Shown here in pieces: positions 4,065 through 30,136 of a stretch of DNA of 52,704 nucleotides; the stretch's first letter is position 1, and every line of letters begins with the position of its first letter. The notes below the pieces were generated by a model, which saw only the letters and a list, made by a program, of their open reading frames with translations, was not told the DNA's origin and did not search any database. The stretch comes from a virus (Duplodnaviria; Caudoviricetes). A program made the position numbers and the translations under genes. The stretch covers positions 1 to 52,704 of the IMG/VR virus record IMGVR_UViG_3300046715_000106; one strand, written 5' to 3'.

Positions 4065-4142
4065 CCAGAACAGGTAGGTGGTGTGGGCCCGCACCGGTAC
4101 GGTGGCCGGGCCCACACCCTCACGCACGAGAGAGGCACACGA

Positions 4143-4595
4143 ATGGCGAAGAACACGTCGGGGATCGGCCGGGTCACGATCTTCCCGTTCATCCACGACT
4201 GGGAAACCGGCTCCCGCTGCGCCCTCGCCTACACCACCACCGACGGCGGAACGACCGCCGTGATGGGTGTGATCCCTGTCGAAGGCAACGTGCACGAGCC
4301 GGGTGACCTGTTCGCCATGGCCGGACGGCACGGGTTCATCGGGGAGTGGAAGGGCAGCCACGAGCAGCGCTGCGGCGCGTGGCTCGCTTGTACCGGCGCG
4401 GGCTCTCGGACGGTGCAGAAGGCAGGCACGATCGACGTGCCCGACGCTGGGTGGGCGCTGGACATGGCGCGGGCCGCCGACCTCGAAGGCGCCTACTACG
4501 GGCACCTGCGGGTCGCTGCCGGCCGGATCACACTCGACGACCCGGCGTTGATGGAGCGGGCTCGCGCTCTAGTGCCCCTGCCGGTGGCCGTGTAG
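4143..4595 (+). CDS. Hypothetical protein
   Basis: 150-aa ORF with RBS GAGG and high-GC3 codon usage. Confidence 0.7.
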   Translation: MAKNTSGIGRVTIFPFIHDWETGSRCALAYTTTDGGTTAVMGVIPVEGNVHEPGDLFAMAGRHGFIGEWKGSHEQRCGAWLACTGAGSRTVQKAGTIDVPDAGWALDMARAADLEGAYYGHLRVAAGRITLDDPALMERARALVPLPVAV

Positions 4596-4661
4596 CCGAG
4601 GTGCTGGCCCCGTCTGTCCGCTTCCCCCGTGGCGGATGGGCGGGGCCTCTTGCGGCCCGCT

Positions 4662-4895
4662 TCAGCGCACGAGGTCGGCGAGCGGCACGTTGAGGGCGTC
4701 GGCGATGAGGAGCAGGTCTTCCAGGTTCGGGATGCGGGTGGCGTGCTCGTATCGGTGGACCGTTTTGTGGTCGCGGCCGATGCGGTCGCCGAGCTGGACC
4801 TGCGTGAGGTTCGCCTCCTCGCGCGCTGCGCGGACGCGCGCTCCGATGACCGCACGGCGGGCTGGAACCCAGGCAGGCAACGGATCGAGTGGCAC
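4662..4895 (-). CDS. Small XRE-family HTH regulator
   Basis: IGARVRAAREEANLTQVQLGDRIGRDHKTVHRYEHATRIPNLEDLLLIADAL. Confidence 0.88.
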   Translation of the reverse strand: MPLDPLPAWVPARRAVIGARVRAAREEANLTQVQLGDRIGRDHKTVHRYEHATRIPNLEDLLLIADALNVPLADLVR

Positions 4896-4928
4896 CCGCC
4901 CACGCTTGCCGCACCATGATCATAAGTC

Positions 4929-4947
4929 TTTACCTGACCGGGTAAAT
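4929..4947. promoter_or_regulatory. Inverted repeat TTTACC-N6-GGTAAA, candidate operator
   Basis: AT-rich palindrome upstream of the small XRE gene. Confidence 0.45.
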
Positions 4948-5088
4948 TTAAGGATCTTGAACCGGGGAAACTGACCGATGCCGCACCATCGCACGTCAGA
5001 GTATGGACCGCGGCCGTGAAGCGGTCGCCGGGTGTACGCGTCTCCACCCGATCCGGCCGTTAGACGCTAAGACTCGGTCAAAGCGTCC

Positions 5089-5626: not shown

Positions 5627-6910
5627 TCACACCGCCCGCAACGTTCGAACACCCTCGGTCTCCGGGGCCATCCGCGCGAGCACCTTCGCGGCCACGTCCT
5701 CGGGGGAGTGCTGATAGATCCACGTGACCTTCGAGCCGCGTTCGTGGCCCATCACGGTCTGCGTGTCCTTCTCATCGATCCCGAGCTCCTTGAGCCACGT
5801 CGCGAACACGTGCCGCAGATCGTGCACCCGCGGCCACCACTCCAGCCGACCCGTCTCCGGGTTCTTGACCTGCCTTGCAAGACCCGCGTCCTGGATGGCC
5901 GGCACCCACACACGGCGGAAGTTGTGCCGCGTGAGCGTGCCCCCCTGCGGCCCACGGAAGACAAGCTCCTTCGGCACGAGGTCGTACGGGTCGTCGCCGA
6001 TCGGTGTCACCTTCTCCGACGGCCGCCACCGATCCACCATCGTGCGGACCGCGTCGGCCGCCTGCGGGGTGAGCGGCACTGTGCGGAACCCAGCGACGCT
6101 CTTAGGTGCAGGCTTCCGGAAGAGCCGCCCGTGGTCCTCACTGAGCACTTCCTTCACCTTGAGGTGGTTAGCCTCCAGGTCCACGTTCTCCCACCGCAGC
6201 GCCGTCGCCTCACCCCACCGCAGACCGGTGTGCTCCAAGAACACGACCAACGGCCGGTAGTACATGGGCAGATGCTCGACGATGAGCGCGCACTGTGCAC
6301 GGCTCGGCGGCCGAAGATCATCGGGGTGCTTGGTCTGCGGCTCCCCGATGTCGAGGTCAGCAGCCGGGTTGAAGGGGATGCGGCGCCCGTCCTTCACTGC
6401 GGCCTTGAGCATCTGGTTCAGGACCTCGTGGACCTTCTTCCGCGTGTGGTAGCCCTTCACTTCCTTCGTGATCCATGCCTGTAGCTCGATGTACTCCAGG
6501 TCGCACAGCCGCCACTCGCCCCACTTCGGTTTGATGTGGGCATTCCAGTTGGACACCTTCCGGTTCGTCGTCGTGACCGCCCGGTCCGGCTGCGCCTCCC
6601 ACCACTTCACCCACCACTGCGCGAGAGTGATCTGCCCGCGCTTGGGGTCGGAGTACGTCTTGGTGCGGACTTGGTCGCGCATCTTGTCGAGGTGCGCCTC
6701 GGCCGCCTTGAAGCCGCCGTCTTCGATCGAGAAGCACTTCTGCTTCTGGTTTCCGGCGCGATCCCGGTACCGGGCCTGCCACGAACCCGTGCAGTCCCGG
6801 CGCCTGTTGCGCTCGCCGTACTCCTCGGGCGGGTACTTGGCCATGCACAGCTGGCATCCGCAACTCTTCGCGCGCAGCTGCCGCGGGTTGTTCGAAGCCC
6901 TACGCCCCAT
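5627..6910 (-). CDS. int: Tyrosine integrase
   Basis: TGLRWGE, HDLRH and MGH...TWIY catalytic motifs; adjacent to att core. Confidence 0.97.
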   Translation of the reverse strand: MGRRASNNPRQLRAKSCGCQLCMAKYPPEEYGERNRRRDCTGSWQARYRDRAGNQKQKCFSIEDGGFKAAEAHLDKMRDQVRTKTYSDPKRGQITLAQWWVKWWEAQPDRAVTTTNRKVSNWNAHIKPKWGEWRLCDLEYIELQAWITKEVKGYHTRKKVHEVLNQMLKAAVKDGRRIPFNPAADLDIGEPQTKHPDDLRPPSRAQCALIVEHLPMYYRPLVVFLEHTGLRWGEATALRWENVDLEANHLKVKEVLSEDHGRLFRKPAPKSVAGFRTVPLTPQAADAVRTMVDRWRPSEKVTPIGDDPYDLVPKELVFRGPQGGTLTRHNFRRVWVPAIQDAGLARQVKNPETGRLEWWPRVHDLRHVFATWLKELGIDEKDTQTVMGHERGSKVTWIYQHSPEDVAAKVLARMAPETEGVRTLRAV

Positions 6911-7154
6911 GATGAATCACCACCTGGTCTCCGTTCACTCGCTGCTGAGATACCTGAGCGAGGAGACGGACTCTCTCCCCACAGAAGCAGCGTGCACCCA
7001 ATTCGGGCTGCTCGACGGCGAGTTCGGAGAGGACCTTACGGACGGCGCGCAGGGCGTATATGCCCTCCAGCTGCGCCGGGATCCGGATCAGCCGCCGCTC
7101 TGGGTCCCATGGGGAGGCCGTGCCAGAGGAGACGTAATGGACGCGGATACACAT
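6900..7154 (-). CDS. Small hypothetical protein between repressor and integrase
   Basis: 84-aa ORF overlapping int start, CFCG motif. Confidence 0.6.
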   Translation of the reverse strand: MCIRVHYVSSGTASPWDPERRLIRIPAQLEGIYALRAVRKVLSELAVEQPELGARCFCGERVRLLAQVSQQRVNGDQVVIHHGA

Positions 7155-7337
7155 GCCGAACCCCCGGAGACGCAGGCGACAGGATGGAAGCCGTGGGGGA
7201 GGACATCGGCCGTGTGAGCGACCGTACTCGCAGATTGGTGAATATGCGACCAGTCTGCGCATGCTCCGTGTGCATAAATGCGCGCAGTGTGAACGAGCGT
7301 ATTTCGCTCAGGCTTGCGAACGGGTCAGAAGGTTGCG

Positions 7338-7703
7338 CTACGTCCGGTTTGCTTCGTTCAGCGCCCGCATCTCGATCTCCTTCGCCCGCTGCTGCTCCTC
7401 GGTGAGCCCGCGGAAGTACTCCAGTACGCGAGCTTCCCTGGCTGCGTCGAGGGGGCCCGGGGTGGCGCGGCCGGCGGCGGCGAAGATCTGTTCCTCGGTG
7501 AACTTGGGGAACTCGCGGGCGAGTGCGCGCAGGCTTTCCGCCTTGACGCCGCGCTTGGTGCCGCGCAGGCGGTGTGTCCAGGCGTTGACCGTGGCTGGGG
7601 CGACGCCGATGCGGCGCGCGACTTCGCTCTCGTTGACGTCGTACTCCGACTTCAGACGGGCGAGCAGCTGCGCGAGGTCTTCAGTGCGCTCCTCATGCTC
7701 CAC
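7338..7703 (-). CDS. Immunity repressor (XRE HTH), probably leaderless
   Basis: NESEVARRIGVAPATVNAW HTH; upstream of int and divergent from the Cro-like gene. Confidence 0.82.
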   Translation of the reverse strand: MEHEERTEDLAQLLARLKSEYDVNESEVARRIGVAPATVNAWTHRLRGTKRGVKAESLRALAREFPKFTEEQIFAAAGRATPGPLDAAREARVLEYFRGLTEEQQRAKEIEMRALNEANRT

Positions 7704-7725
7704 GGGGCTAAGAGTGCACGCCAGT

Positions 7726-7753
7726 CTTCTACTTTCGCAAGTGAAAGTAGAAG
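7726..7753. promoter_or_regulatory. Operator-like inverted repeat CTTCTACTTTC-N6-GAAAGTAGAAG
   Basis: Perfect 11-bp arms just upstream of the repressor. Confidence 0.65.
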
Positions 7754-7887
7754 CGTGGCGCGATGTCAGCGCGGCGCGTAACCTCCCCGTCACGCACCGG
7801 CGCACGTGGCATATGCACCGAGAATAGAACGCACATTCGATGACCGCCAGTGGGGCGCACAACTTGCAGAAACAACCCGCCACTCAC

Positions 7888-7924
7888 TTGACCTCACTGA
7901 CACTGACACAGTAGAAATGTGTCA
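7888..7924 (+). promoter_or_regulatory. Early rightward promoter with overlapping palindrome
   Basis: TTGACC-N18-TAGAAA; TGACACA-N7-TGTGTCA at 7904-7924. Confidence 0.55.
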
Positions 7925-7973
7925 ACGGCAGCCCGGCAGGCCGCACCACTCACCAACTGGCACGAGGTCCCAC

Positions 7974-8252
7974 ATGTCCAACCTGATCCGCAAGGGCAAA
8001 GGCAAGCCACTCAGAGACGCACTGGAGCGGCACGGCCTGAACGCCCCCCAGCTCGCCGCCGCCACCAAAAGCGTGGACGCGAAGGGGCGCGGGATCAGTA
8101 CAGCCACCGTCTACAACGTCCTCGACGAAGACAACGGCGCATCCGACACCTGCCACATGCGCACCGCATGGCTGATGACCACGGCCATGGGTGAACCCCT
8201 CCAAACGCACTTCGACTTGCCCTCCGTTTCAACTGACACAGTGGAAAAGTAG
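7974..8252 (+). CDS. Cro-like HTH protein
   Basis: LRDALERHGLNAPQLA...ISTATVYNV; first gene of the rightward early operon. Confidence 0.7.
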   Translation: MSNLIRKGKGKPLRDALERHGLNAPQLAAATKSVDAKGRGISTATVYNVLDEDNGASDTCHMRTAWLMTTAMGEPLQTHFDLPSVSTDTVEK

Positions 8253-10769: not shown

Positions 10770-11650
10770 GCACCACCGCGCAGGCCGGGGCGAGCGTCGC
10801 CCCGGCCGCCGGCCCCGACCGAATCCCCCGCCCCTCGCAGGGCTGGTACCGCGTCCCCGGCACCGACATCAAACTCCGCCGCGTCACCACCATCCTGTCG
10901 CAGGGATTCCCCAAGCCGCAGCTCGTGTTCTGGGCAGCCAACCTCACCGCGGCCGACGCCTTCGCCACCCTGCCCCGCCTCGTCCACGCCTCGCTCCGAC
11001 CGGCCGACAAGGAAGCCGCATACGACTGGCTGCGCAAGGGCCACATCCGCAAGAAGGACGAACGCGGAGAGATCGGCGGCGCCGTCCACGACGTCATCGA
11101 AGCGAAGGTCCTCGGCACCCCCATCCCCGAAAGCTTCCTCACCGACGACGAGATCGCCCCGTTCATCGACCACTTCCTCCGCTTCGTCGAGGAGTGGGAG
11201 ATCGAGTTCGAGGCCTCGGAGATGACCGTCGGGAACTTCACCGACGGATGGGCCGGGAAGCTCGACTACCTGTTCCGCTCACCTCGCATCGCGGCCGCGC
11301 TCCGAGTCCCCACGAACACGCTGTTCATCGGCGACACGAAGACCGGCGGTGAGCTCGACGAGAAGGGCGTGTACCCGGAGGCCGGCGCGCAGATGTCCGC
11401 GTACCGGCGGGCCGAGGTGGCGTGGCTGCCGGACGGCACGCAGGTCCCCATGCCGAAGGCGCACCCAGTCGGAATCGTTCTGCACCTGCGCCCGGAGGGT
11501 TACCGCCCTATGCCGCTGAAGTGCGGCGACGACGTGTACGAGGCCTTCCGCCACGTCCAGCAGGTCGCCGAGTTCCAGCGCGTCCTCGCCAAATCCGTTG
11601 TGGGTGAGGCCCTCACCCTTCCCGCCACCACTGAAGAGAGGGCCGCCTGA
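10766..11650 (+). CDS. PD-(D/E)XK (RecB/Cas4-like) exonuclease
   Basis: GGAVH, GKLD, GDTKTG and QMSAY motifs. Confidence 0.8.
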   Translation: MSTTAQAGASVAPAAGPDRIPRPSQGWYRVPGTDIKLRRVTTILSQGFPKPQLVFWAANLTAADAFATLPRLVHASLRPADKEAAYDWLRKGHIRKKDERGEIGGAVHDVIEAKVLGTPIPESFLTDDEIAPFIDHFLRFVEEWEIEFEASEMTVGNFTDGWAGKLDYLFRSPRIAAALRVPTNTLFIGDTKTGGELDEKGVYPEAGAQMSAYRRAEVAWLPDGTQVPMPKAHPVGIVLHLRPEGYRPMPLKCGDDVYEAFRHVQQVAEFQRVLAKSVVGEALTLPATTEERAA

Positions 11651-12759
11651 TGCCCATCCTCGATCTCCAGCAGCGCATCCGCGAGTTGGGCCGGATCCGC
11701 ATCGGCCAGAAGGTCGCCACCTCCAACGGCAAGACCCGCCCGTCGAAGCTCAACCGCTTCCGCCTGACGTCGCCCTCCCGCGAGCTCCTCGACAGGGTGG
11801 CCACGCAGTACGGCGGGACCGTCGCCCCGTGGACCCCCGACGGCGGGGCCGGGCAGTACGAGGTCATCACCGAGGCAACCCGCATGCCGATCCTCGTACC
11901 GCACCAGCCCGTCTCCCAGTACTACGAGCTGTGGTCGGGCGGCGGATGCCAGCGTCGCTGCGACGGCGTCACCGAGCTGCTCAAGGATCGGCCGTGCATC
12001 TGCGGCCCGGACCCCGAGGAGCGGCAGTGCAAGCCCACCACCCGCCTGAACGTCGTCCTCTCCGAGGTGCCCGGCGTCGGCGTGTGGCGGCTGGAGTCCC
12101 ACGGCTACTACGCAGCCCTCGAACTCCCCGGGGTGGCCGAGCTGCTGGCGAAGGCTGGCGGGTACGTGCCCGCGTTCCTCGGTCTGGAGGAGCGCACCGC
12201 GAAGCGGGACGGGCAGACCCGGCGGTGGATGGTGCCGACGATCGACGTCGACATCACCCCGACTGCACTCATGGCGGGCAACACGACCGCGGTTCCGGCG
12301 GTGACGGGCGGCCCGGAGCGGGCCGCGATCGAGGCGCCGCGCCCGGACTACGTGCAACTCGCGTCTGTGGCGAAGACGTCGGCCGAGGTGCGGGACCTGT
12401 ACAAGCAGGCCGTCGCGGCGAAGCACATGACCAAGGACATCGCGAACGCCCTGACCGCGCGGGCTGCGGAACTGGACACGCCGAAGAAGACACCGGACGC
12501 GCCGGACGCCACCCCGCAGGACCAGACACCGCCTCCGTCTGAGGAAGGCGAGGTGTATGAGGCCGAGTTCGTCGACGACCCGGCCGACGTGCAAGACGTC
12601 TGGTTCCAGGTCATCGCCGCCGCCGGCGCCCACGGCCTGACGACGGAGCAGGTAGAGGCCGGGTTTGCGCAACGCCACGGCGGGCTGCACCCGTCGTCCG
12701 CGACCGTCGCGCAGATGAACACGTACCTCGCCGCGGTGAAGGCCGGTGAGGTCCGATGA
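11650..12759 (+). CDS. Gp3-like recombination protein (candidate ssDNA-annealing partner)
   Basis: LGRIRIG...PSKLNRFRLTS N-terminus and Cys cluster; follows the exonuclease. Confidence 0.6.
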   Translation: MPILDLQQRIRELGRIRIGQKVATSNGKTRPSKLNRFRLTSPSRELLDRVATQYGGTVAPWTPDGGAGQYEVITEATRMPILVPHQPVSQYYELWSGGGCQRRCDGVTELLKDRPCICGPDPEERQCKPTTRLNVVLSEVPGVGVWRLESHGYYAALELPGVAELLAKAGGYVPAFLGLEERTAKRDGQTRRWMVPTIDVDITPTALMAGNTTAVPAVTGGPERAAIEAPRPDYVQLASVAKTSAEVRDLYKQAVAAKHMTKDIANALTARAAELDTPKKTPDAPDATPQDQTPPPSEEGEVYEAEFVDDPADVQDVWFQVIAAAGAHGLTTEQVEAGFAQRHGGLHPSSATVAQMNTYLAAVKAGEVR

Positions 12760-17177: not shown

Positions 17178-18980
17178 GTGGACAACGTCCGCCACATGCC
17201 GCGCGACCAGGCGGACCAGGACGGCCTCAACCGCGTAAGCCCCCACGACGCCGAGGCCGAAAACTGGATGGCCGGCGTCATCATGCACAGCCGCACCGCC
17301 TACCTCGAATGCGCCGAAGTCCTCGACCGCGACGACATCTACCAGCCCGCGGTCCGCCTCATCTGGGACGTCGTCGGCGGCATGGTCGCCGAGCAGAAGC
17401 AACTCCACCCCATCACCGTCCGCGCCGACATCGAGAAGCAGAAGCAGCTCCGCCTCGTCGACGAGGGCCGCCTCCTCGACCGCCTCGGCGCCGAGACGAT
17501 CAGCCCGACGATGGCGCAGGCCTTCGCCGAACGCATCGCGGACGTCGCGAAGATCCGCCGCCACGACGAGCACGCCAACCGCGTCAAAGCACAGATCATG
17601 CTCGGCGCCACCGCCGAAGAGCTCGACAAGCTCGACGCCGACCACCGCCAGTACGAAGAGCGCCGCGCCACCACCGGCCACGGCCCCTCACACCTCACCG
17701 CCGCGTTCATTGACTGGAACCCGTTCTTCGCCACCGACTTCGGCCGGGTCCAGCTCCTGCCCGGCCGGCTCCTCGGCCCCGGCCAGCAGATCACCATCGT
17801 CGGCGAGGGCAAGGCCGGTAAGAGCCTGGTTGTCCAAGAGTGGCTGTGGCGCATGGCCACCGGCCAAAGCTTCCTCGGCGACCGCCCTCAGGCCCCCATC
17901 CCCCTGCTGTACGTCGACGCGGAGAACGGCCACCAGGACATTCAGGAACGGTTCGTGTCCTACGGCGGCGGCCCCGGACGGATGGGCCTGCTCACCTACG
18001 CGTCCTTCCCGCCGCTGCGCCCCCTCGACACTGCGGGCGGCGGCGCCGACCTGATGGCCATGGTCAAAGAGTCCGAGGCCCAACTCGTCTGCCTCGACAC
18101 CGTGTCCCGGTTCATCTCCGGCCCGGAGAACGACGCCGACACGTGGCTGTCCCTGTACCGGCACACGCTGCTCCCGCTGAAGCGCGCCGGCATCGCCAGC
18201 GTGCGCTTGGACCACATGGGCAAGGACGGGGAGCGGGGCGCCCGCGGGTCGTCCGCGAAGACCCAGGACGTCGACCACGTGTGGGAGCTGCGGGCGCAGG
18301 GCGGCGGCACGCTCGTGCTGAAGCGCACGCACACGCGTACCGGGATCGGCCCGGATGCCTTCGTCGTGGTGCGGCAGTCGCAGAAGGACGGAGACCGCTA
18401 CCGGCCGGGCTGCACCCGCCACGTCCTCATGGACTACGACCGCATGGAGCAGGCCGCCGAGGGCTCGGTGGAGTGGCTGATCCAGAAGATCGACGACCTC
18501 GGTCTGCCGAACGATGCGGGCAACCCGCGGACGATCGCAGCGCTCGCACACGCACAGATCAAGATCGGCAAAGACAAGATCGCGACGGCCGTCCGGGCAC
18601 GGAAAAACCGGGACAACTTGGGTTCCCCGGAAACCTTCCCCGAGACCTTCCCCGAAGGGGTTCCCCGGGAACCTTCCCCGGGAACCCCCGCGGGAACTGA
18701 AAAACCCCAGGTCAAACATTCCCCGGGAACCCTCCGGGAACCTTCCCCCGACCCGGGTTCCCCCCCTTCCCCCCCTCTACGAGAGGGGAAGGGGGAGGGA
18801 ACGCCCGCCACACAGGTTCCAAGCGGGCCCCCCTGCACCATCTGCGACCGCCCCATGACCACCGACTGGGCAAGCCGCGGCTACGACACCCACATCGGCT
18901 GCGACCCCGCCACCGGCAGCCACCCCGACAGGCCCCAACACCCCACCGCAGACGCCCACACCGAAAGGCACAGCGCATGA
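17178..18980 (+). CDS. Replicative helicase/initiator (DnaB-like N-domain, RepA/AAA_25-type ATPase, C-terminal extension)
   Basis: PHDAEAE DnaB-N motif, Walker A GEGKAGKS, Walker B LVCLD, DHMGK, ARGSSA. Confidence 0.85.
   Translation: MDNVRHMPRDQADQDGLNRVSPHDAEAENWMAGVIMHSRTAYLECAEVLDRDDIYQPAVRLIWDVVGGMVAEQKQLHPITVRADIEKQKQLRLVDEGRLLDRLGAETISPTMAQAFAERIADVAKIRRHDEHANRVKAQIMLGATAEELDKLDADHRQYEERRATTGHGPSHLTAAFIDWNPFFATDFGRVQLLPGRLLGPGQQITIVGEGKAGKSLVVQEWLWRMATGQSFLGDRPQAPIPLLYVDAENGHQDIQERFVSYGGGPGRMGLLTYASFPPLRPLDTAGGGADLMAMVKESEAQLVCLDTVSRFISGPENDADTWLSLYRHTLLPLKRAGIASVRLDHMGKDGERGARGSSAKTQDVDHVWELRAQGGGTLVLKRTHTRTGIGPDAFVVVRQSQKDGDRYRPGCTRHVLMDYDRMEQAAEGSVEWLIQKIDDLGLPNDAGNPRTIAALAHAQIKIGKDKIATAVRARKNRDNLGSPETFPETFPEGVPREPSPGTPAGTEKPQVKHSPGTLREPSPDPGSPPSPPLREGKGEGTPATQVPSGPPCTICDRPMTTDWASRGYDTHIGCDPATGSHPDRPQHPTADAHTERHSA
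18615..18825. repeat. Iteron-like GGGAAC/GTTCCC/CCTTCCCC cluster, candidate origin
   Basis: Dense direct and inverted copies inside the helicase 3' end. Confidence 0.7.
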
Positions 18981-23352: not shown

Positions 23353-23462
23353 CCCGGACACGAACGCGGCCCGCCGCTGGTGGAGAGAACGACGGGCCGC
23401 GCGCCTCCAAGGGCATCCCTCGCGGGGTGCAGCCGACGGTACGCCCGCACCAGGCAGGCATG

Positions 23463-23500
23463 GAAGAGCCCCGACCGAGAGGTGGTCGGGGCTTCTTCGT
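23463..23500. terminator. Terminator between convergent operons
   Basis: AGCCCCGACC / GGTCGGGGCT followed by TCTTCGT. Confidence 0.7.
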
Positions 23501-23530
23501 GTGCGGGGTGTCATCCCCAAGCGGTGTCGC

Positions 23531-23914
23531 TCATGATGCCCACTCCTCCCGGTATCCAGGACGGTCAGCGTACGCCGACGCGAGCAGGCGCACCGCGGTG
23601 ATGCCGCTCGGGTTGGTCTCCAGGCACAGGCCTGCGGCGATCTCGTCGGCGTCGTGGCAGCATCCCCACTCGCCGTCGATCTTCGCCTCGTAGATGAACA
23701 CCTCGTCGAGCATCTTCCGCTTGGCGTCGATCTCGCGCAGCACCCGAGCCGGATCATGACGGGCCATGTGGGCGAGGACTTCCACGCCGAGGTGCGGGCC
23801 GTAGATGGCGATGTCGCGCTCGGCCCACTTGCCGTCGCCCGAGCAGGCGCGCGCTACCCGCTCGTCCTCGTCGAGTTGGGCCGTCAGCCACTGCACAAGA
23901 TCCACGCCGCTCAC
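23531..23914 (-). CDS. DUF6221-like protein
   Basis: LVQWLTAQLDEDE...HDPARVLREIDAKR...LLASAYADRPGYREEW. Confidence 0.75.
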   Translation of the reverse strand: MSGVDLVQWLTAQLDEDERVARACSGDGKWAERDIAIYGPHLGVEVLAHMARHDPARVLREIDAKRKMLDEVFIYEAKIDGEWGCCHDADEIAAGLCLETNPSGITAVRLLASAYADRPGYREEWAS

Positions 23915-24123
23915 TCCTCAGCACCATCCGACTCAGGCGCCTCCCACACGTTCCGGGCAGGACGCTCGGGCATCCGCGCACCCGGCGTACGCAGGTACCA
24001 AGCGATGAACTCCCTGATCACCGTGGCCCGATCAGTGCCCAACGCCTTCGCCGCTGCGTCGAAGTCGTACCACTCATCGCCGATACGGATCTGGCGAGCA
24101 GGGGTCTTCGGCGCGTTTGGCAT
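23911..24123 (-). CDS. Ribbon-helix-helix repressor, probably leaderless
   Basis: TPARQIRIGDEWYDFDAAAKALGTDRATVIREFIAWY; TACGGT -10 box 6 nt upstream. Confidence 0.75.
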   Translation of the reverse strand: MPNAPKTPARQIRIGDEWYDFDAAAKALGTDRATVIREFIAWYLRTPGARMPERPARNVWEAPESDGAEE

Positions 24124-24140
24124 GCGCAAACCGTATCCGG

Positions 24141-24289
24141 GCGTAGCTACACGCGGCAATGGAAGCTCCTCTCATCGGTAGCTACACGCGTCTCGGATCG
24201 AACGGCTTGCGGTGTAGCTACACCTCACTCTAAGGTGTAGCTACACCTCCAATCAAGGCGGTGCAATCCAACGGGGTGTAGCTACACCC
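24141..24289. promoter_or_regulatory. Divergent promoter with five GTAGCTACAC operators
   Basis: Copies at 24143, 24178, 24214, 24237, 24278; TTGCGG-N18-TAAGGT at 24207-24236. Confidence 0.85.
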
Positions 24290-24301
24290 GAGGGGGAGCA
24301 A

Positions 24302-24451
24302 GTGACCGCAGAACCCGAGCCGGACCTCACGCCGCAGCCGAACCAGATCCTCGCCGCACCCGCCACCGTGCAGGCCTGCCAGCAGGACTACGCGGCCGGC
24401 GCCGACGTCCGCCAGACCATGGCCGACCAGGAAGCGAGGGCGCAGCGCTGA
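24302..24451 (+). CDS. Small hypothetical protein
   Basis: RBS GGGAG; TGATG coupling. Confidence 0.55.
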   Translation: MTAEPEPDLTPQPNQILAAPATVQACQQDYAAGADVRQTMADQEARAQR

Positions 24452-24648
24452 TGAGCTTCCTCGGACGGATCTTCGGCGGCGGCAACGACCGCGAGCTCGC
24501 CGAAACGAAGTACGCCGGGCGTGAGTCCGCCACCGCCAGCGCCGCCCGCGGCCGCCGCCAAGGCCACAAGCGCAGCGGCGCCACCAAGGCCGCCCGCGCC
24601 GGCCAGTCCTGGGAGGACAAGTACTTCCACGACCACGGCGGCTACTGA
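24451..24648 (+). CDS. Small basic protein with N-terminal amphipathic helix
   Basis: MSFLGRIFGGG. Confidence 0.65.
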   Translation: MSFLGRIFGGGNDRELAETKYAGRESATASAARGRRQGHKRSGATKAARAGQSWEDKYFHDHGGY

Positions 24649-24724
24649 CCACCACCAACCACCGGGCCCGTGCTGTCCACCCCCCAGCACGGGCCCGGCC
24701 CCTTCTTCCGAGAGGCACCACCCC

Positions 24725-25066
24725 ATGAAGATCCGCCGTATCACCGTCGCCCTGCTCGCCGCCGCCGCGTTCGCGCTCACCGCCTGCGGCCACAGCAGCC
24801 CGCCCGCCAGCACCAGCAGCGCCACCACCACCGTCGCGCCCGAGCCCACGCCGACACCCGAGCTCACCCCCGACGACATGACCGACGCCATCGTCGACAT
24901 CACCTGGGGCCAGACCAGCGAGGCCGACAAGGACGACCTGTGCGCAGGCATCGCGCTCCTCGGCACCGACTGGGCTGCCGAGCAGCTGGCCATCGGAGGC
25001 GGCGACGACAGCCTCGACTGGGACCGGGCCGCCGTCCTCTACGAAGCGAAGTGCAACGCGCGCTGA
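24725..25066 (+). CDS. Lipoprotein
   Basis: Signal peptide with LTAC lipobox. Confidence 0.8.
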   Translation: MKIRRITVALLAAAAFALTACGHSSPPASTSSATTTVAPEPTPTPELTPDDMTDAIVDITWGQTSEADKDDLCAGIALLGTDWAAEQLAIGGGDDSLDWDRAAVLYEAKCNAR

Positions 25067-25110
25067 CCCGCCATCCGTTCGCCACCCTCGCCGCCACCCA
25101 GGAGCTCTTC

Positions 25111-25578
25111 ATGACCACGCCGCCCGCCGTACTCGAACAGCGCCGCGCCACCGTGCGCCAACTGCACGCGGCCGGCCACTCCAACCGCGCCATCGCGCGC
25201 CAGCTCGGCGTCAGCAAGGACGCCGTGGCGCGCGACCTGCGAGCCACCGAGCCACCCCCCGGTGAGCCGCAGGCCGCGCCGGACGCGCCACCCGCCGAGA
25301 CGGCTGTGCACGCCACCAGCGAGCCGGACCGAGCCACGCCCGCGCCGCCCATCCCGACCAGCGGCAACCCAGTGAAACCGTGGCTCGTCCACGACATGGA
25401 CCCGCGGCTCGTCCAGGACCTCAACATCCTCATCGACCCGCGCACCGGCCGCCTGCCCGCGCCACTGGAGCGCGCCATCAGCATCGCCGCCGCGGCCCGG
25501 CGCGCCGCCTGGCGCGGCAGCGAGTCGAGCCAGGCGCGCGACGACCGCGCCACCGCGAGCCAGGGCGGCGCGCGATGA
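25111..25578 (+). CDS. HTH DNA-binding protein with Pro/Ala linker
   Basis: GHSNRAIARQLGVSKDAVARDL. Confidence 0.78.
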   Translation: MTTPPAVLEQRRATVRQLHAAGHSNRAIARQLGVSKDAVARDLRATEPPPGEPQAAPDAPPAETAVHATSEPDRATPAPPIPTSGNPVKPWLVHDMDPRLVQDLNILIDPRTGRLPAPLERAISIAAAARRAAWRGSESSQARDDRATASQGGAR

Positions 25579-26168
25579 GCGACCAGAAGCCGGGCGCAGA
25601 CGAGCTCCGGATGCGCGGCATCCTCCGCAGGCGCGGTGTCGGGTATGACGCCGGACCCCCTGCTGTCCCACCGGCCCTGCCCGACGGGTACGAGCCCGCG
25701 CAGGCCGACGCCGACTGGTGGGACGACCTCTACGACGAGGACGACCCCGGGCCCGCAGAAGGGGAGGAGCCCGCGGCGACGGACGCTGCCCCGTCCGGGC
25801 CCGGCTGGTGGCAGACGCAGCCCAACTACTACCCGCGCCCCCACATGCCGGCCGCCCTCACCCGCACCCGCGACCGCGCCGACGCCGCGCTCAGCCCCCG
25901 CACCCGCAAGCTCCTGTACAACGCGTCCGCGGCCGGGGCCGGTTGGGTCCTCGGCCTCTACGACCAGCTCGCCCACGCGATCGCGGACTGCGGCCAGCAG
26001 TACAGCATCAGCGGCGCCCTCACCCTCGGCATTGGCGCCTGCCTCCTCATCGCCCACGTGTGGGACCGGCGCACCCGCCACTGGTGGCCCGGCATCGCCT
26101 GGGTCGCCCGCATCCCGCTTGCCACCGCCCTCACTGCGCTCGCCCTGTGGGCGCCCGCGTCAGCCTGA
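25575..26168 (+). CDS. Membrane protein with acidic N-terminus
   Basis: About three C-terminal hydrophobic helices; coupled. Confidence 0.75.
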   Translation: MSDQKPGADELRMRGILRRRGVGYDAGPPAVPPALPDGYEPAQADADWWDDLYDEDDPGPAEGEEPAATDAAPSGPGWWQTQPNYYPRPHMPAALTRTRDRADAALSPRTRKLLYNASAAGAGWVLGLYDQLAHAIADCGQQYSISGALTLGIGACLLIAHVWDRRTRHWWPGIAWVARIPLATALTALALWAPASA

Positions 26169-26181
26169 ACAGGGGAAAACT

Positions 26182-26694
26182 ATGTTCACGCACATCATCG
26201 CCGCCGCCCCCGCCATCAGCGTGGAAGGCGGACGCATCCTCGGCTCGGTCGGCGCGGGCGGTATCGCGACCGCGCTCACCGTGATCCTCGTCGCCGGGAT
26301 CCGCGAGCCGAAGGGTGGTGGAGGCGCCGGCCCGGGCGGCGGCGGGGGTGGCGGGAAGAAGGGCCGCATCCGCAAGCGGCTGACCAGCGACCAAGCCCAG
26401 TGGACGGGTGTCGCCGCGGGCACGTTCTACATGACCGCCGGGTCCATCTGGACGGTCGGCAAGAACCTCTCCGACGCGTTCGCCACCGTCTTCACCGGCG
26501 GCGGGTTCGGCACGGCGGGCATGGGCGCGGTCAGCCTGCTGCTCGCGGCGCTCATGTACTTCCGTGAGCTGGCCCCGGCGAAGGCTGCGTTCGTGGGCGT
26601 GTTGGCGGCGGGGGTGTGGTCGCAGGCGGGCGGGATTTGGGGTCTGCCGCAGGCGTTGATCCTCACCGGGGCGCATGCGGTGGGCGCCATCTAA
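26182..26694 (+). CDS. Gly/Ala-rich polytopic membrane protein
   Basis: Several GxxxG-rich hydrophobic helices. Confidence 0.75.
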   Translation: MFTHIIAAAPAISVEGGRILGSVGAGGIATALTVILVAGIREPKGGGGAGPGGGGGGGKKGRIRKRLTSDQAQWTGVAAGTFYMTAGSIWTVGKNLSDAFATVFTGGGFGTAGMGAVSLLLAALMYFRELAPAKAAFVGVLAAGVWSQAGGIWGLPQALILTGAHAVGAI

Positions 26695-27353
26695 TGAAGA
26701 TCATTACGAAGGCAGGGGAGCGGCTCCCCCAATGGCTGGCCACCGAGATCCGGCCCGTCCTCGCATTCACCGGAGCAGGCCGCGCCCTCGTGACCGGGTC
26801 CCGGATCCTCACCCGCCGCGGATGGGACGCCCTCAGCGAACGCCTCTACGGGTGGGAAAAGTACGGGGCCCTGGCGTTCACCGGATACGCGGCCGTCTAC
26901 ACCGGCGGCCACGCCCCGCACATCGCACGCTTCGTCATCCCCGCGGCCGCCGTCGTCTGGTGTGTCGCCGCATGGTGGGTGGCCCCGCCCGTTGTGCAGC
27001 CGGCCGTCGAGGACACCGAACCGGAACCCGACGAGCAGCCCGGCGCCAGCGACCCCCAAGGGGTGTACGAGGCCACCCTCGAATGGATCTGGCAACAGAT
27101 CGGCGACGCCCAAGGCGTACACCTCCGCGACCTCCTCGCCCACGCCCACGCCCACGGCATGTTCGAGGACCTGGAAGTGACCGACCTCAAGGGCCACTTG
27201 GAGCGGTGGGCGATCCCCATCCGCAAGCGCTGCCGAGTCCGCGGACTCGGGGTGACCGTCGGCATCCACCGGGACGACCTGCCAGCCCCTTCCCGCCCCT
27301 CCCCCGGGCGAGAGGCCCAAGACCCCCCGGAATCTGAACTACACGCTGGGTGA
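26694..27353 (+). CDS. Membrane protein with C-terminal winged-helix-like domain (TraB-like ends, no ATPase)
   Basis: Two TM helices, acidic linker, GVHLRDLL...LKGHLERWAIPIRKR...GIHRDDL. Confidence 0.65.
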   Translation: MKIITKAGERLPQWLATEIRPVLAFTGAGRALVTGSRILTRRGWDALSERLYGWEKYGALAFTGYAAVYTGGHAPHIARFVIPAAAVVWCVAAWWVAPPVVQPAVEDTEPEPDEQPGASDPQGVYEATLEWIWQQIGDAQGVHLRDLLAHAHAHGMFEDLEVTDLKGHLERWAIPIRKRCRVRGLGVTVGIHRDDLPAPSRPSPGREAQDPPESELHAG

Positions 27354-27401
27354 CCTGCGAAACCACACCCCGACTACGCCCCGACTACAGGGGCCGACCA
27401 C
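27336..27401 (+). repeat. Short direct repeats (CCGACYAC / ACYAC)
   Basis: CCCCGACTAC at 27368 and 27379, CCGACCAC at 27394, degenerate copies at 27336 and 27360. Confidence 0.55.
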
Positions 27402-27417
27402 AGGACGGAGGCCCGGG

Positions 27418-27669
27418 ATGCCGTACGTGTACCGCTGCCGGAAGTGCCGCGCATCAAGCCCCCCGGGCCCCCGAAGAACCGCCGAGGAGTACCGGCAGGA
27501 GCACCGCGACGAGAGGCACGGCGGGCTCGTCCCGCGCGGCGAAGAGATCGTGCGGGTACCAGGGAGCACCCCGAATCCGGACGGCAGATACGTCAGCACG
27601 GGTGGGCTCCTCGGTCTGCTCGGTCTGCTCGCGGTCGCCGAGTTCCTGGCGCGGGTCCTCGGCCGGTGA
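27418..27669 (+). CDS. Zinc-finger protein with C-terminal TM anchor
   Basis: CRKC...H....H plus hydrophobic tail. Confidence 0.7.
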   Translation: MPYVYRCRKCRASSPPGPRRTAEEYRQEHRDERHGGLVPRGEEIVRVPGSTPNPDGRYVSTGGLLGLLGLLAVAEFLARVLGR

Positions 27670-27812
27670 CCGGTTGCCCGGACCGCCTGCACCCGCGGGC
27701 GGTGCGGGGAGCCAGGCACCGCCTGAACTCCACACCCCGGGACGGCTGTTCCTCCGCCAAGACGTCCAGCCGCCCCGGGCCCATCCCGATCACACGAGAC
27801 AGGAGCGCCATC

Positions 27813-27959
27813 ATGGCACTCGGCTGGACGACCAACCCCGAGCCGGACGACGAGCGGCTGCAAGGACACGAGACCGTCTACCAGGCAAGCCGCGGCGGGC
27901 ACTTCCCCGTCGAGGAGAAGCCCGTACCGGGAACACCGCAGGAGCCGCAGCAGAGTTGA
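27813..27959 (+). CDS. Small hypothetical peptide
   Basis: RBS AGGAG, 48 aa. Confidence 0.55.
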   Translation: MALGWTTNPEPDDERLQGHETVYQASRGGHFPVEEKPVPGTPQEPQQS

Positions 27960-28063
27960 CGCGCCCTGCCACACTGGCGGCAGGTCGTCAGTGCCAGGCC
28001 CCGCCACGCAACCCCCCGTCGTGGCGGGGCCGTCCCACACCAGCACAGCGATAGGACAAGACC

Positions 28064-28213
28064 ATGACGGACAACAGGCCGGCCCGCCGCACGCACACCC
28101 GCCTCGCCGACATCGATCCGACCGCGCAGTCGACGGTGCGCTCGGCTGGCAGGGTGCGGGACATCCCGGGCCGCCGGCCCGCCAAGCCGATCACCTTCGA
28201 CTCGGCGCTGTAG
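28064..28213 (+). CDS. FxSxx-COOH RiPP precursor-like peptide
   Basis: MTDNRPARRTHTRLADIDPTAQSTVRSAGRVRDIPGRRPAKPITFDSAL*; RBS AGGA; followed by terminator; absent from the ORF track. Confidence 0.72.
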   Translation: MTDNRPARRTHTRLADIDPTAQSTVRSAGRVRDIPGRRPAKPITFDSAL

Positions 28214-28223
28214 CACCCATACG

Positions 28224-28264
28224 CGAAGGGCCCCTGCTGGCTTGGGAGCAGCAGGGGCCCTTCG
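28224..28264. terminator. Terminator hairpin between convergent genes
   Basis: 16-bp stem CGAAGGGCCCCTGCTG / CAGCAGGGGCCCTTCG. Confidence 0.8.
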
Positions 28265-28285
28265 TCATCCCCGAGACCGGCCGCG

Positions 28286-28738
28286 TCAGTTCTTCGCCTC
28301 GTCAGCCTCCAAGCTGAGCGTCAACGCCGACCCGCCCGCCAGGATGGTCCGCGCATCGTCAGGACACGGCGACCCCTCGATGCTGGCGTTCTCATCGCCG
28401 AGACACTCGTGCTTGGTGTACGCCTCGACAGCATCGTTGACCTTGCCGATCTCCGCGACAGTCCGCGGGTACGAGTCCTTCCCCCCAGCCTCCGTGACCG
28501 CCTGCTCCAGATCGGTGACGGCGAGAGCAATGTCCGTGAGGTGGTCGGCGCAGGCCTCGTCGCCGGCCTGGTTGCAGATCCCGGTGTCGGCTTTGGCCGC
28601 GGCTTCGAGCTTCGGTGCCCACTCCGCGGCGAGGCTGCTGCTGCTCGGGCTGGGCTTGCTGTCGCTGCCGTTGCTGCTGCTGGTGCATGCGGTGGCGGCG
28701 GCGAGGATGAGCGCGGCGGCGATGGCGTGTCTGTGCAT
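28286..28738 (-). CDS. Lipoprotein with four Cys in the mature domain
   Basis: MHRHAIAAALILAAATAC lipobox, Ser-rich linker. Confidence 0.78.
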   Translation of the reverse strand: MHRHAIAAALILAAATACTSSSNGSDSKPSPSSSSLAAEWAPKLEAAAKADTGICNQAGDEACADHLTDIALAVTDLEQAVTEAGGKDSYPRTVAEIGKVNDAVEAYTKHECLGDENASIEGSPCPDDARTILAGGSALTLSLEADEAKN

Positions 28739-28854
28739 GGTGGTGCCCCCCTTGTGTTGCCGGTGAGGGTAGATGACCGGCGGGTTGGGGGGTGAGGGGT
28801 TCGCGTGGATTCGTTCGCGAGGAGGCCCCGCTCGGTGTCCGGGCGGGGCCTTCG

Positions 28855-29106
28855 TCATGCGGGGAGTTGGGCGTCGCAGTCCGGGCAGAGGTAGGCCAGC
28901 AGCTCGCCCGTGACGACGCTGCGCACCTCGGCCGGGGTGAGGTGACGGCAGGCGCCCTTCACGTACTCGGGGCGGCCGTCAATGCCGGTTACGTCGATCC
29001 ATTCCCAGCGCGGGTCGAGATCGAGGGTGGGGCCGAAGACTGCGTCGAGTATTTCCGCCCCGCGGGCCAGCTCTTGGAGCCGGGCCTGGTTCTCGGCGTC
29101 GCTCAT
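28855..29106 (-). CDS. Small zinc-ribbon protein
   Basis: CRH...CPDC. Confidence 0.6.
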   Translation of the reverse strand: MSDAENQARLQELARGAEILDAVFGPTLDLDPRWEWIDVTGIDGRPEYVKGACRHLTPAEVRSVVTGELLAYLCPDCDAQLPA

Positions 29107-29369
29107 GTGGCCGGCTCCTCGCCCGGACGCACCGGCGGTTGCGCCTCGAACACCTCGGCTACGGCCCCGTCGTAATCCCGAACCTCGAACCGTCCGGTCG
29201 GGACGAACGTCGCCTGCGCATACGTGCCGTCACCAGGCGGCGTCCAGTCGTCGGGCGGGGGCGGTGGAAGGGCCGTCCGGTCGATCCAGCGGCCGTCCCA
29301 GCGTGGTGGGAGGAACCAATCGGGGGCGCCGGGTGCTGCGCGGAGAACGACGTAGTCCGGCTCGCTCAT
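29103..29369 (-). CDS. Hypothetical protein
   Basis: Coupled; PTGRFEVRDYDGAVAEVFE. Confidence 0.6.
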   Translation of the reverse strand: MSEPDYVVLRAAPGAPDWFLPPRWDGRWIDRTALPPPPPDDWTPPGDGTYAQATFVPTGRFEVRDYDGAVAEVFEAQPPVRPGEEPAT

Positions 29370-29608
29370 GCGTTCTTCTCCTCGCCGCCCGGCGGGCGCT
29401 CGCGCAGGTCGGTCCGTGCGCCCTGGCCCGGCCGCTCGAACCCGATGATCGTGGCTGGCTTCCAGACCGGGGAGCGGCCGAACACCTGGTCGGGCTCGGG
29501 GAGTTCGCCGCGCTTCCGGGAGCGGTAGGTGCGCACGGTCTGTGGGCTGATGCCCCAGTGTTCGGCGACGTCGGTGATGGTCCAGTAGTCGGCGTTGGGG
29601 TCGGGCAT
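29366..29608 (-). CDS. AlpA/MerR-type HTH regulator
   Basis: WTITDVAEHWGISPQTVRTYRSR..LPEPD..FGRSPVW...RPGQGARTDL. Confidence 0.82.
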   Translation of the reverse strand: MPDPNADYWTITDVAEHWGISPQTVRTYRSRKRGELPEPDQVFGRSPVWKPATIIGFERPGQGARTDLRERPPGGEEKNA

Positions 29609-29681
29609 GGTCCGCCTCGTTGTCGTTGTGGTGTGGACAAAGTCTAGCGGGTCCAGCCTCGAATACTTCGCTGCATTCATG

Positions 29682-29746: not shown

Positions 29747-30136
29747 ATGAGGCACACGGCGAACGAGACCAGCACCACCACCCTCACCCGCCTCATCAAG
29801 GCCCTCGACGCCAAGCACCCGGTGACGATCACCTACACCAAGGCCGACGAGACCGTCACGGTGAGGACGATCGAGGTCTACGACATCGTGGTCAGCGCCG
29901 CCGGCGACATCCTGCTGAAGGCCATGGACCGCGAGACCGGCGAGTCCCGCTCCTTCCGCCTCGACCGCCTCGTCTCGTACACGGTCCACCGCACCGAGTA
30001 CACCGTCGCCCGGCCGGCCGCCGACGAGCCCAAGACCCGCCCCACCCACGGCCTCGCTTCGGTCACCGTGCTCTACCCGGTCGACCTCCCCGCCCTCGCC
30101 CGCGTCGAGCTGCTCGCCGACGCCCTCGCCGCCTGA
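29747..30136 (+). CDS. Stand-alone WYL-domain protein
   Basis: VTITYTKAD..VTVRTIE...D..TGESRSFRLDRL. Confidence 0.85.
   Translation: MRHTANETSTTTLTRLIKALDAKHPVTITYTKADETVTVRTIEVYDIVVSAAGDILLKAMDRETGESRSFRLDRLVSYTVHRTEYTVARPAADEPKTRPTHGLASVTVLYPVDLPALARVELLADALAA

Follow-up and report, generated by a model that had tools for sequence, protein, structure and literature searches.

IMG/VR virus record IMGVR_UViG_3300046715_000106 was analysed over its full length of 52,704 bases, which we call the window. With a G+C content of ~70% and a CheckV completeness estimate of 77%, the window is that of a temperate siphophage of a Streptomyces-type host. All related DNA and proteins found come from Streptomyces. 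Downstream of its early genes lies a self-contained accessory operon bounded by hairpins on both sides, in which ten open reading frames (ORFs) of 48-219 aa follow a divergent ribbon-helix-helix (RHH) repressor gene. As most raw ORFs in such DNA are spurious, genes were assigned by plotting third-position GC and running a simple likelihood caller. The operon is distant from the canonical immunity region (7.3-8.3 kb) and from the amidase gene (51.9 kb), and consists of the following features.

23459-23504: intergenic hairpin, flanked by the rightward early genes, which stop at 23352, and by the end of the DUF6221 gene; near-perfect stem, RNAfold -29.4 kcal/mol
23531-23914, minus strand: DUF6221 protein, 127 aa (PF19730, E 5.7e-30)
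23911-24123, minus strand: Arc-like RHH repressor, 70 aa (phrog_6506 'Arc-like repressor', E 2.2e-7, residues 2-46)
24141, 24176, 24212, 24235 and 24276 (span 24141-24287, 147 bp): five operators, palindrome GTGTAGCTACAC
24159-24130, minus strand: putative leftward promoter, TTGCCG-18 nt-TACGGT, read by eye; operator 1 in the spacer
24207-24236, plus strand: putative rightward promoter, TTGCGG-18 nt-TAAGGT, read by eye
24302-24451, plus strand: s1, 49 aa, acidic and soluble; third-position GC 0.90
24451-24648, plus strand: s2, 65 aa, basic; third-position GC 0.92; start overlaps the s1 stop
24662-24698, plus strand: perfect 14-bp hairpin just after s2 (repeat I18), -32.3 kcal/mol
24725-25066, plus strand: lipoprotein, 113 aa; a signal peptide with L-T-A-C lipobox is followed by a Thr/Pro linker and a two-cysteine domain of 65 aa
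25111-25578, plus strand: soluble helix-turn-helix (HTH) protein, 155 aa; best match HTH_38, E 1.3e-5, 25.3 bits against a cut-off of 27
25575-26168, plus strand: Mem1, 197 aa; acidic proline-rich N-terminal half with WWDDLY, three hydrophobic helices, WDRRTRHWWP
26182-26694, plus strand: Mem2, 170 aa; polytopic membrane protein rich in glycine and the best-conserved member of the module
26694-27353, plus strand: Mem3, 219 aa; helical membrane part at the N-terminus and winged helix at the C-terminus, with an acidic linker between them
27418-27669, plus strand: tail-anchored zinc-finger-like protein, 83 aa; CxxC...HxxxxH and a C-terminal hydrophobic helix (phrog_32136, E 1.2e-10)
27671-27716, plus strand: hairpin after the zinc-finger gene, -37 to -41 kcal/mol
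27813-27959, plus strand: s3, 48 aa, hydrophilic (MALGW...); 55% identical to OnionKnight gp61
27997-28034, plus strand: hairpin between s3 and s4, -32.1 kcal/mol
28064-28213, plus strand: s4, 49 aa, C-terminus F-D-S-A-L; third-position GC ~0.9
28223-28265: perfect 16-bp hairpin between the operon and convergent minus-strand genes (repeat I7), -38.4 kcal/mol

Membrane helices or a signal peptide are encoded by at least five of the ten ORFs. The stop codon of one gene overlaps the start codon of the next at s1/s2, HTH/Mem1 and Mem2/Mem3, and a gap of 13 nt separates Mem1 from Mem2. All parts listed in a preliminary description of this DNA (RHH protein, operators, small proteins, lipoprotein, HTH protein, three membrane proteins and a transmembrane zinc finger) are present. 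That description ended the unit at 27669, whereas it runs to ~28265 and so gains s3 (48 aa) and s4 (49 aa). It also named two DNA repeat clusters: one is the operator cluster, and in place of the second we found only weak repeats, none beyond the GC-rich background. Besides the operators, Tandem Repeats Finder returned weak items only, such as an 11-nt unit repeated 1.9 times at 27368-27388. No Pfam or NCBIfam family matched Mem1-3, the lipoprotein or s1, s2, s3 and s4 above threshold.

For comparison we used 15 loci that bear a Mem3 gene, namely one IMG/VR contig (L004) and 14 loci in Streptomyces genomes (L006-L019), together with the phages VWB and OnionKnight.

An Arc-like repressor and its operators

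The RHH protein gave no Pfam match at E<=0.01 and no match to GntR. Its gene has an alternative TTG start at 24159 and a third-position GC below that of the neighbouring genes; L013 and L019 encode homologues of 57-65 aa. The profile match, taken together with repeated symmetric operators adjoining its own gene, would place the protein among the Arc/MetJ-type repressors. The DUF6221 start overlaps the RHH stop, so the two genes are presumably co-transcribed; a DUF6221 homologue also stands beside the divergent regulator in seven of the related loci (L004, L006, L007, L008, L012, L013 and L014).

Allowing for up to two mismatches, GTGTAGCTACAC matched five times where 0.71 matches were expected, and at least five were reached in 0 of 100 shuffles. 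At the same stringency no copies were found elsewhere in the 52.7-kb record. A 14-mer of the operator occurs three times in the record at <=1 mismatch, and the operator region also appears as repeats D1, I8 and I13. What had been described as a promoter with five operators thus holds for the operators; a consensus scan of the region found no sigma-70-type promoter and no T-tailed terminator. The candidate promoters in the list were read by eye, and the hexamers of the rightward one are weak (3/6 each). Within it, operator 3 would fall in the spacer, operator 4 on the -10 element/start, and operator 5 in the leader before the ribosome site GAGGGGGAG. The putative leftward promoter stops 6 nt short of the RHH ATG, so that the RHH mRNA would be leaderless. 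At these predicted positions, the RHH protein may be expected to repress the operon.

Many genes of the window DNA contain internal hairpins of comparable energy, and those listed here are noteworthy because they lie directly behind stop codons, not because of their energy. The hairpin at 23459-23504 is likely a two-way terminator that insulates the left side of the unit, and the one at 28223-28265 is likely a two-way terminator as well. The hairpin after s2 is possibly an attenuator or RNA-end element within the operon; L004 has a hairpin of different sequence at the equivalent place.

The RHH-operator cassette is portable. In L013 (11617-11860) an RHH protein 58% identical to that of the window is accompanied by the sites GGTGTACGGACACC and GGTGTACGTACACC, which share the form GGTGTAC(G/T)(G/T)ACACC, the same CTTGCGG context and a similar layout; the genes behind the cassette differ. 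L008 (6400-6640) has another regulator and four copies of the palindrome AGACCCTAGGGTCT, and the regulator of other relatives is a different HTH protein of 100-103 aa. Because relatives with other regulators again show repeated palindromes, the module seems in general to come with a local repressor and several operators. The compact Arc-type repressor with its 12-bp operator could serve as a genetic switch for Streptomyces.

The membrane protein core

Mem1 had 121 cluster representatives at E<=1e-3 and is present in 8 of the 201 genomes searched. Mem2 had 253 relatives at the same threshold, the best 120 of which are 76-100% identical to it and carry no Pfam family; the Mem2 alignment has a mean column identity of 83%. 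The Atlas clusters of both proteins are actinobacterial and without a Pfam family, and their structure matches reached TM-scores of 0.33 or less. For Mem3 we obtained 179 relatives at E<=1e-3, all of them 'hypothetical' and devoid of precomputed Pfam domains.

An AlphaFold2 model of Mem3 (pLDDT, the predicted local distance difference test, 78.7) shows four helices at the N-terminus, then an acidic linker, and a winged helix that occupies residues 121-192. The winged helix is predicted to adopt an H-S-H-H-S-S fold, with mean pLDDT values of 80-94 in 10-residue blocks. When residues 114-205 were compared by VIA, all top matches were winged-helix domains (Z 5-6.7) that point to no specific family. 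Foldseek against PDB found nothing at E<=0.001 for Mem3 and only generic winged-helix matches at E>=1, and a Mem3 profile found nothing below E 0.45 among PDB sequences. A longer fused relative was considered in phrog_5650 (565 positions) and rejected, as this is a composite profile: its positions ~14-226 correspond to the Mem3 family, and its positions 263-528 to unrelated ORFs, for the most part ~330-560 aa long, elsewhere in the genomes tested (G001-G003, G051, G140).

The match to Mem3 takes in the membrane part as well in loci whose Mem1 and Mem2 are of the window type (L004, L006, L009, L011), and only the winged-helix part matches in L007, L008, L012 and L013. Because the match of the membrane part tracks the Mem1/Mem2 type, we read the membrane part of Mem3 as docking onto Mem1/Mem2. 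The window-type Mem2 and the other ~170-aa type gave an hhalign probability of 1.0% against each other with small alignments, and the two Mem1 types are weakly linked (34%). A complex prediction for Mem1 (100-197), Mem2 and Mem3 (1-110) gave no answer (score 0.00), which speaks neither for nor against binding. By the positive-inside rule, three nucleic-acid-type domains would lie on the inner face of the membrane, namely the winged helix of Mem3, the zinc finger and that of the HTH protein.

The module in prophages and phages

The Mem3 relative lies downstream of early-type genes and on the same strand in 15/15 loci, and in 11 of them a recognisable gene for terminase, portal or capsid protein comes no more than 10 kb later. 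The other four (L007, L010, L012, L019) have phage-type neighbours and no packaging gene recognised in the part examined. The common order is a divergent regulator, often with DUF6221, then small ORFs (s1/s2), a protein we call X, a Mem1-type protein, a protein of ~170 aa, Mem3, and a zinc finger or s3. In the X protein (235-373 aa), a coiled or low-complexity linker lies between four membrane helices and an HTH at the C-terminus. X was found in 13/15 loci; L010 breaks off where its contig ends, and the protein of L019 in this place is not a membrane protein. The genes for the Mem1-like, Mem2-like and Mem3 proteins occur in constant order and with translational coupling, and their types change in concert; the order and place of Mem2 and Mem3 are kept across phages whose terminases are only 27% identical. 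Synteny, which the preliminary description had proposed to examine, places the module in the 15 related prophage loci and in the phages VWB and OnionKnight.

In OnionKnight the module corresponds to gp56-62 at the right genome end; the immunity repressor (gp33) and integrase (gp30) are encoded elsewhere, and so are the endolysin (gp22) and the holins (gp23-24). In VWB it corresponds to gp21-26 and lies upstream of the primase/polymerase gene, not beside the packaging genes. Here gp23 is an s1 homologue, the last ~170 aa of gp25 are a Mem2-type protein, and gp26 is 31% identical to Mem3 (E 4e-15). Like the window, both phages have a divergent DNA-binding gene, small ORFs, and membrane proteins including a Mem2-type protein and a Mem3 relative; the s3 homologue is OnionKnight gp61. 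Unlike the window, they carry a DUF2637 protein, and their regulators are HTH rather than RHH proteins. The parts of the module in isolated phages, the DUF2637 genes of phiSASD1 (gp15) and Dubu (gp38) included, are annotated solely as hypothetical, membrane protein or, in our view mistakenly, excisionase. The annotated VWB genes for gp25 (416 aa) and gp26 (253 aa) overlap by 170 nt (L064, 7538-9378), and their starts look too far upstream, because only the last ~170 aa and ~190 aa match the Mem2-type and Mem3 families, respectively.

Searching 50,697 phage records with Mem3 by tblastn gave no match at E<=1e-3. Since pairwise BLASTP shows VWB gp26 to be a relative, such blanks understate the distribution of the family. 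At the DNA level, only short pieces of the region matched phage records (s1 in VWB, s3 in OnionKnight, DUF6221 in Kromp, HTH in Alderaan).

The modules of relatives also contain variable inserts. These include a membrane GT2 glycosyltransferase in L007 (6247-7350) and a MUG113/T5orf172 protein in L004, and GIY-YIG-like proteins follow Mem3 in both loci; the L004 insert coordinates are 3605-3982 and 6548-7360.

Relationship to spread genes of plasmids and AICEs

The preliminary description likened the operon to the transfer and spread modules of Streptomyces plasmids and of the integrative and conjugative elements of actinomycetes (AICEs). Its layout and the homology of its relatives bear this out, and the operon's own proteins, the lack of a translocase and the repressor type do not. 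The consulted sections of Thoma et al. (PMC4447253) describe spd genes as three to seven in number, coupled, too diverse to be recognized by sequence and acting with TraB. In the same sections, SpdB2 of pSVH1 is a pore-forming, DNA-binding protein that binds peptidoglycan (PMC4447253). The Spd proteins of AICEs are presented as small and hydrophobic and serving spread through septal cross-walls in the part of PMC2440964 that we consulted.

Homology was examined with the SpdB family (PF27079/PF27080) using small alignments in hhalign. The X proteins of L004 and L006, which represent the closest syntenic prophage and hold the matching position there, were aligned with a homologue from the plasmid pSAM1, and this alignment matched the pIJ101 SpdB family with an hhalign probability of 95.1% (E 3e-8, 185 columns). 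A mixed alignment of 11 X proteins reached 90.5%, and the C-terminus of the L008 X protein matched the SpdB C-terminus at 94.2%.

A second link runs through DUF2637 (PF10935, threshold 22.8 bits), the family whose gene comes immediately behind the FtsK-like tra gene in pSAM2-type AICEs. VWB gp24 (E 1.2e-35, 123 bits) and OnionKnight gp57 (E 1.1e-14, 55 bits) are members; of the 12 X proteins from prophages that were scanned, two belong to the family as well (L017, 54 bits; L014, 24.9 bits). In three Streptomyces genomes, 7/25 DUF2637 matches are situated no more than ~1.2 kb downstream of an FtsK_SpoIIIE gene. Locus L023 reads GntR - FtsK_SpoIIIE - DUF2637 - small ORFs - RepSA - Xis - Int and, on the evidence of this gene order, is assigned as a pSAM2-type AICE with its DUF2637 gene in the spd position. 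Streptomyces plasmids of 7 kb carry DUF2637 proteins that are 70-76% identical to the L017 protein. DUF2637-type membrane proteins of two further phages, phiSASD1 gp15 and Dubu gp38, are named 'excisionase' in RefSeq, probably wrongly and likely on account of their C-terminal HTH.

We find that a conserved phage module with its own repressor holds SpdB or DUF2637 homologues in many phages, VWB and OnionKnight among them, and that the window is a variant of this module without either gene. No literature linking phages with Spd or DUF2637 proteins was found in a search that largely left subscription journals uncovered and did not extend to supplements. The soluble HTH protein of the window sits where relatives carry the SpdB/DUF2637-type membrane protein, and its hhalign score was 1.3% against the SpdB family and at most 2.9% against SpdB or X proteins. 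An 'AAGHS' string shared by this protein and the SpdB C-terminus was dropped as a candidate link, hhalign giving only 1.3%.

The operon also shares its organization with the Spd and kil-kor operons, such as pIJ101 spdA-spdB-kilB with KorA/KorB and pSVH1 spdB3-spd79-spdB2 with TraR. Both have a dedicated repressor with a multi-site operator, which controls a series of small proteins with translational coupling; most of these are hydrophobic and some have DNA-binding parts. Via its relatives, the module further has an SpdB homologue or DUF2637 protein in the matching place. The window regulator is Arc-like RHH rather than a GntR-type TraR/KorA, and its repressor with five operators follows a similar logic. 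The operon differs from Spd operons in that it lacks an FtsK-like TraB, that no clt-like repeat set was identified in the window and that it is carried by a tailed phage. Support for the spread-module reading is thus only partial and comes through the relatives of the operon.

In pSAM1 (NZ_CP012383; L005, 5000-16800), an 89.7-kb Streptomyces plasmid, a GntR gene, an operon encoding an SpdB-like protein, the gene for a 'conjugative DNA transfer family' protein of 768 aa and a terminase gene stand side by side, a layout that can be likened to that of pZL12, reportedly a plasmid-phage. Unlike plasmid-phages of this type, the window integrates by a tyrosine integrase and has no par or tra ATPase genes, and none of its operon proteins is shared with pSAM1. 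A 769-aa protein of L007 was considered as a relative of the pSAM1 transfer-family protein and is unrelated despite its size.

Possible function of the operon

Streptomyces forms a multi-genome mycelium, in which an entering element must reach other chromosome copies to be inherited through spores. Plasmids and AICEs meet this spreading problem with Spd proteins. A temperate phage in such a mycelium would, by analogy, face the problem that an AICE meets after transfer; we take this as a rationale, not as evidence.

The single most likely reading, to which we assign a probability of roughly 0.35, is that the operon works like a Spd operon and handles phage double-stranded DNA at the membrane. 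The RHH repressor would bind the five palindromes, covering both putative divergent promoters and the operon leader, and repression would silence membrane proteins that are probably toxic, in the fashion of kil-kor systems. Upon release of the repressor, Mem1, Mem2 and Mem3 would assemble in the cytoplasmic membrane together with the zinc-finger protein, the HTH protein and the lipoprotein, and the cytoplasmic side of this assembly would bear the nucleic-acid-binding domains. After infection or induction it would handle phage double-stranded DNA at the membrane or at hyphal cross-walls, and would thereby spread or retain the replicating genome in a mycelium of many genomes. A host translocase would serve as the motor, if there is one at all.

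This reading is preferred because the core is conserved in both order and sequence across phages with very different packaging genes, because the operon is tightly gated and brings several nucleic-acid-type domains to the membrane, and because most relatives build the module around a spread-type protein. Nevertheless, we do not file the window as a Spd operon, since it has no SpdB or DUF2637 gene and no FtsK-like gene, its RHH repressor is not of the GntR type and Mem1-3 are unrelated to Spd proteins. That a tightly repressed Spd-like module moves naked phage double-stranded DNA across cross-walls, allowing neighbouring compartments and chromosome copies to be colonised after infection or induction without virions as by AICEs and plasmids, strikes us as unlikely; the window would then be a reduced form that lacks the SpdB-type pore protein and employs a host FtsK-like motor.

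Several results weigh against a Spd-like function. Seven of the nine X subfamilies scored at most 1.8% against SpdB with small alignments, and Mem1, Mem2 and Mem3 scored 4.2%, 0.4% and 0.2% (as controls for the X proteins they gave 0.0-4.2%). Mem1-3 are unrelated to pIJ101 proteins by BLASTP and to the proteins of six AICE loci. The comparison with Spd proteins called for by the preliminary description thus gave no relation for Mem1-3 and the HTH protein of the window (hhalign <=4.2%; no BLASTP match to pIJ101). At E<=10 the window gave 0 matches to SpdB or DUF2637 and 0 to an FtsK/TraB-like translocase (PF01580). Among the neighbours of at least 225 aa in relatives, 0 of the 78 scanned out of 88 listed were FtsK-like; 74 + 4 proteins were covered, and the remaining ten, with clear packaging homologues, were left out. 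As the record is only 77% complete, a missing gene could lie beyond it. TraB is essential for plasmid transfer and pock formation according to the consulted sections of PMC4447253. Mem3 had no tblastn match at E<=1e-3 in 72,556 plasmids, and the generic winged helix modelled for Mem3 (Z<=6.7) could bind protein rather than DNA. A search for sequencing runs listed 10 of DNA, all from soil metagenomes, and none of RNA. Finally, the lipoprotein and the variable inserts of relatives (glycosyltransferase, MUG113, GIY-YIG) are typical of lysogenic-conversion or exclusion islands.

Such an island is the main rival, which we consider doubtful yet the best of the alternatives. On this account the operon serves superinfection exclusion, defence or lysogenic conversion: the autoregulated RHH protein sets prophage expression, and the lipoprotein and membrane proteins block DNA entry or alter the envelope. 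The own promoter and flanking hairpins are moron-like, a lipoprotein and several small membrane proteins are encoded, and relatives carry variable cargo in the same place (the L007 glycosyltransferase and the L004 MUG113/T5orf172 protein). The distribution is sporadic, as seen for Mem1 (8/201 genomes), and all carriers seen are temperate. Exclusion cassettes, for instance those with Ltp-type lipoproteins, likewise combine a lipoprotein with small membrane proteins in a separately transcribed prophage island. They differ from the window in its conserved cytoplasmic nucleic-acid-type domains, strongly conserved core and five operators. Three of its parts have such domains, which would be superfluous for an entry block, and five operators favour tight silencing over steady expression. 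Moreover, the order and place of Mem2 and Mem3 remain constant where terminases are 27% identical, and Mem2 is 76-100% identical over its best 120 relatives, unlike fast-evolving defence genes. The lipoprotein is itself not part of the core (2/401 genomes). No exclusion-cassette family was matched in PHROGs, PADLOC not having been searched.

Alternatively, the operon could anchor phage DNA to the membrane for replication or packaging, its membrane proteins organising replicating or concatemeric DNA there without passage between compartments, which we judge unlikely. In phi29, the early-region proteins p16.7 and p1 combine a DNA-binding domain with a membrane anchor. A similar role would suit the combination of membrane part and winged helix in Mem3, the tail-anchored zinc finger and the position of the module in most loci, after replication and early genes and just before terS/terL. 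The window unit differs from p16.7/p1 by its own repressor and several polytopic partners. The VWB module, upstream of primase/polymerase and away from the packaging genes, is at odds with an anchor, and so are the repressor and terminators of the unit, which set it apart from the early transcript. The module is also absent from most isolated Streptomyces phages (Mem3 tblastn, 0/50,697 records at E<=1e-3; VWB gp26 a relative by BLASTP), and the SpdB/DUF2637 link suggests transport rather than anchoring.

It is rather improbable that the operon remodels the envelope or assists lysis by tuning holin timing, cell-wall passage or the integrity of hyphal compartments in the lytic cycle. Small polytopic membrane proteins under tight control would fit such a role, OnionKnight gp60 has a weak Holin-X-like match (E 0.006, under the cut-off), and pore formation and peptidoglycan binding are reported for pSVH1 SpdB2 in the consulted sections of PMC4447253. 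However, the lysis genes lie elsewhere, both in the window (amidase, 51.9 kb) and in OnionKnight (endolysin and two holins, gp22-24), no holin family matched above threshold, and the DNA-binding-type domains would be left unexplained. Equally improbable is that unrelated accessory genes share a promoter by recombination accident: the RHH-operator unit does front other genes in L013, and the lipoprotein, HTH gene, X gene and inserts do vary between loci, but the Mem1-like, Mem2-like and Mem3 genes keep their order and coupling and switch type together.

The conserved phage module with SpdB or DUF2637 homologues and the window variant together make the question of how temperate phages meet the spreading problem directly testable in non-pathogenic model strains. 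The analysis also gives a tentative role to several protein families with ~120 to 250 database relatives each, none of which is in Pfam.

Accessory proteins of the operon and other genes of the window

Homologues of s1 are VWB gp23 (52% identity, E 2e-8) and proteins in L008 and L014, and homologues of s2 occur in L004, L008, L011, L012 and L013. The lipoprotein gave NCBIfam matches of the signal-peptide type only, all under cut-off, and true homologues were found in two of the 401 Streptomyces genomes searched (G001, G155). For the HTH protein, other HTH families matched besides HTH_38, again all under cut-off. The zinc-finger protein is 63-80% identical in L004, L009 and L011. The s3 protein is 60-62% identical to its homologues in L007 and L014, and its gene matches OnionKnight at the DNA level. 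The s4 protein weakly matched the FxSxx-COOH model TIGR04268 (E 0.005, 17 bits against a cut-off of 28), which describes precursors of ribosomally synthesized and post-translationally modified peptides; no radical-SAM maturase was found among the window genes scanned. Two strong hairpins bracket s4.

Outside the operon, the following genes were identified in the window, by Pfam scan except for the repressor/Cro-like pair.

5627-6910, minus strand: tyrosine integrase (PF00589)
7338-8252: repressor/Cro-like pair beside the integrase, the apparent canonical immunity region
11650-12759, plus strand: Gp3-like 'recombination directionality factor' protein (PF18897, E 4e-42)
17178-18980: DnaB-like helicase
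31928: terminase
33468: portal
37100: capsid protein
51910: amidase

The Pfam scan further identified an exonuclease, a WhiB protein and two very long tail proteins. Directionality factors of the Gp3 type are known from serine-integrase phages; in the window the Gp3-like factor (11650-12759, plus strand) coexists with a tyrosine-type integrase (5627-6910, minus strand). Beyond the integrase, positions 1-5000 encode a 401-aa XRE-type HTH protein and several small ORFs, and this segment may be host DNA or another island within the virus record. A leftward convergent cassette and, after it, the gene for a WYL-domain protein lie at 28286-29680 (minus strand) and 29747-30136 (plus strand). The cassette encodes a further lipoprotein, of 150 aa, a cysteine-containing protein of 83 aa and an Xis/HTH-like protein that matches phrog_597 (E 1e-22); the WYL-domain protein is 60-81% identical in L009, L011 and L012.

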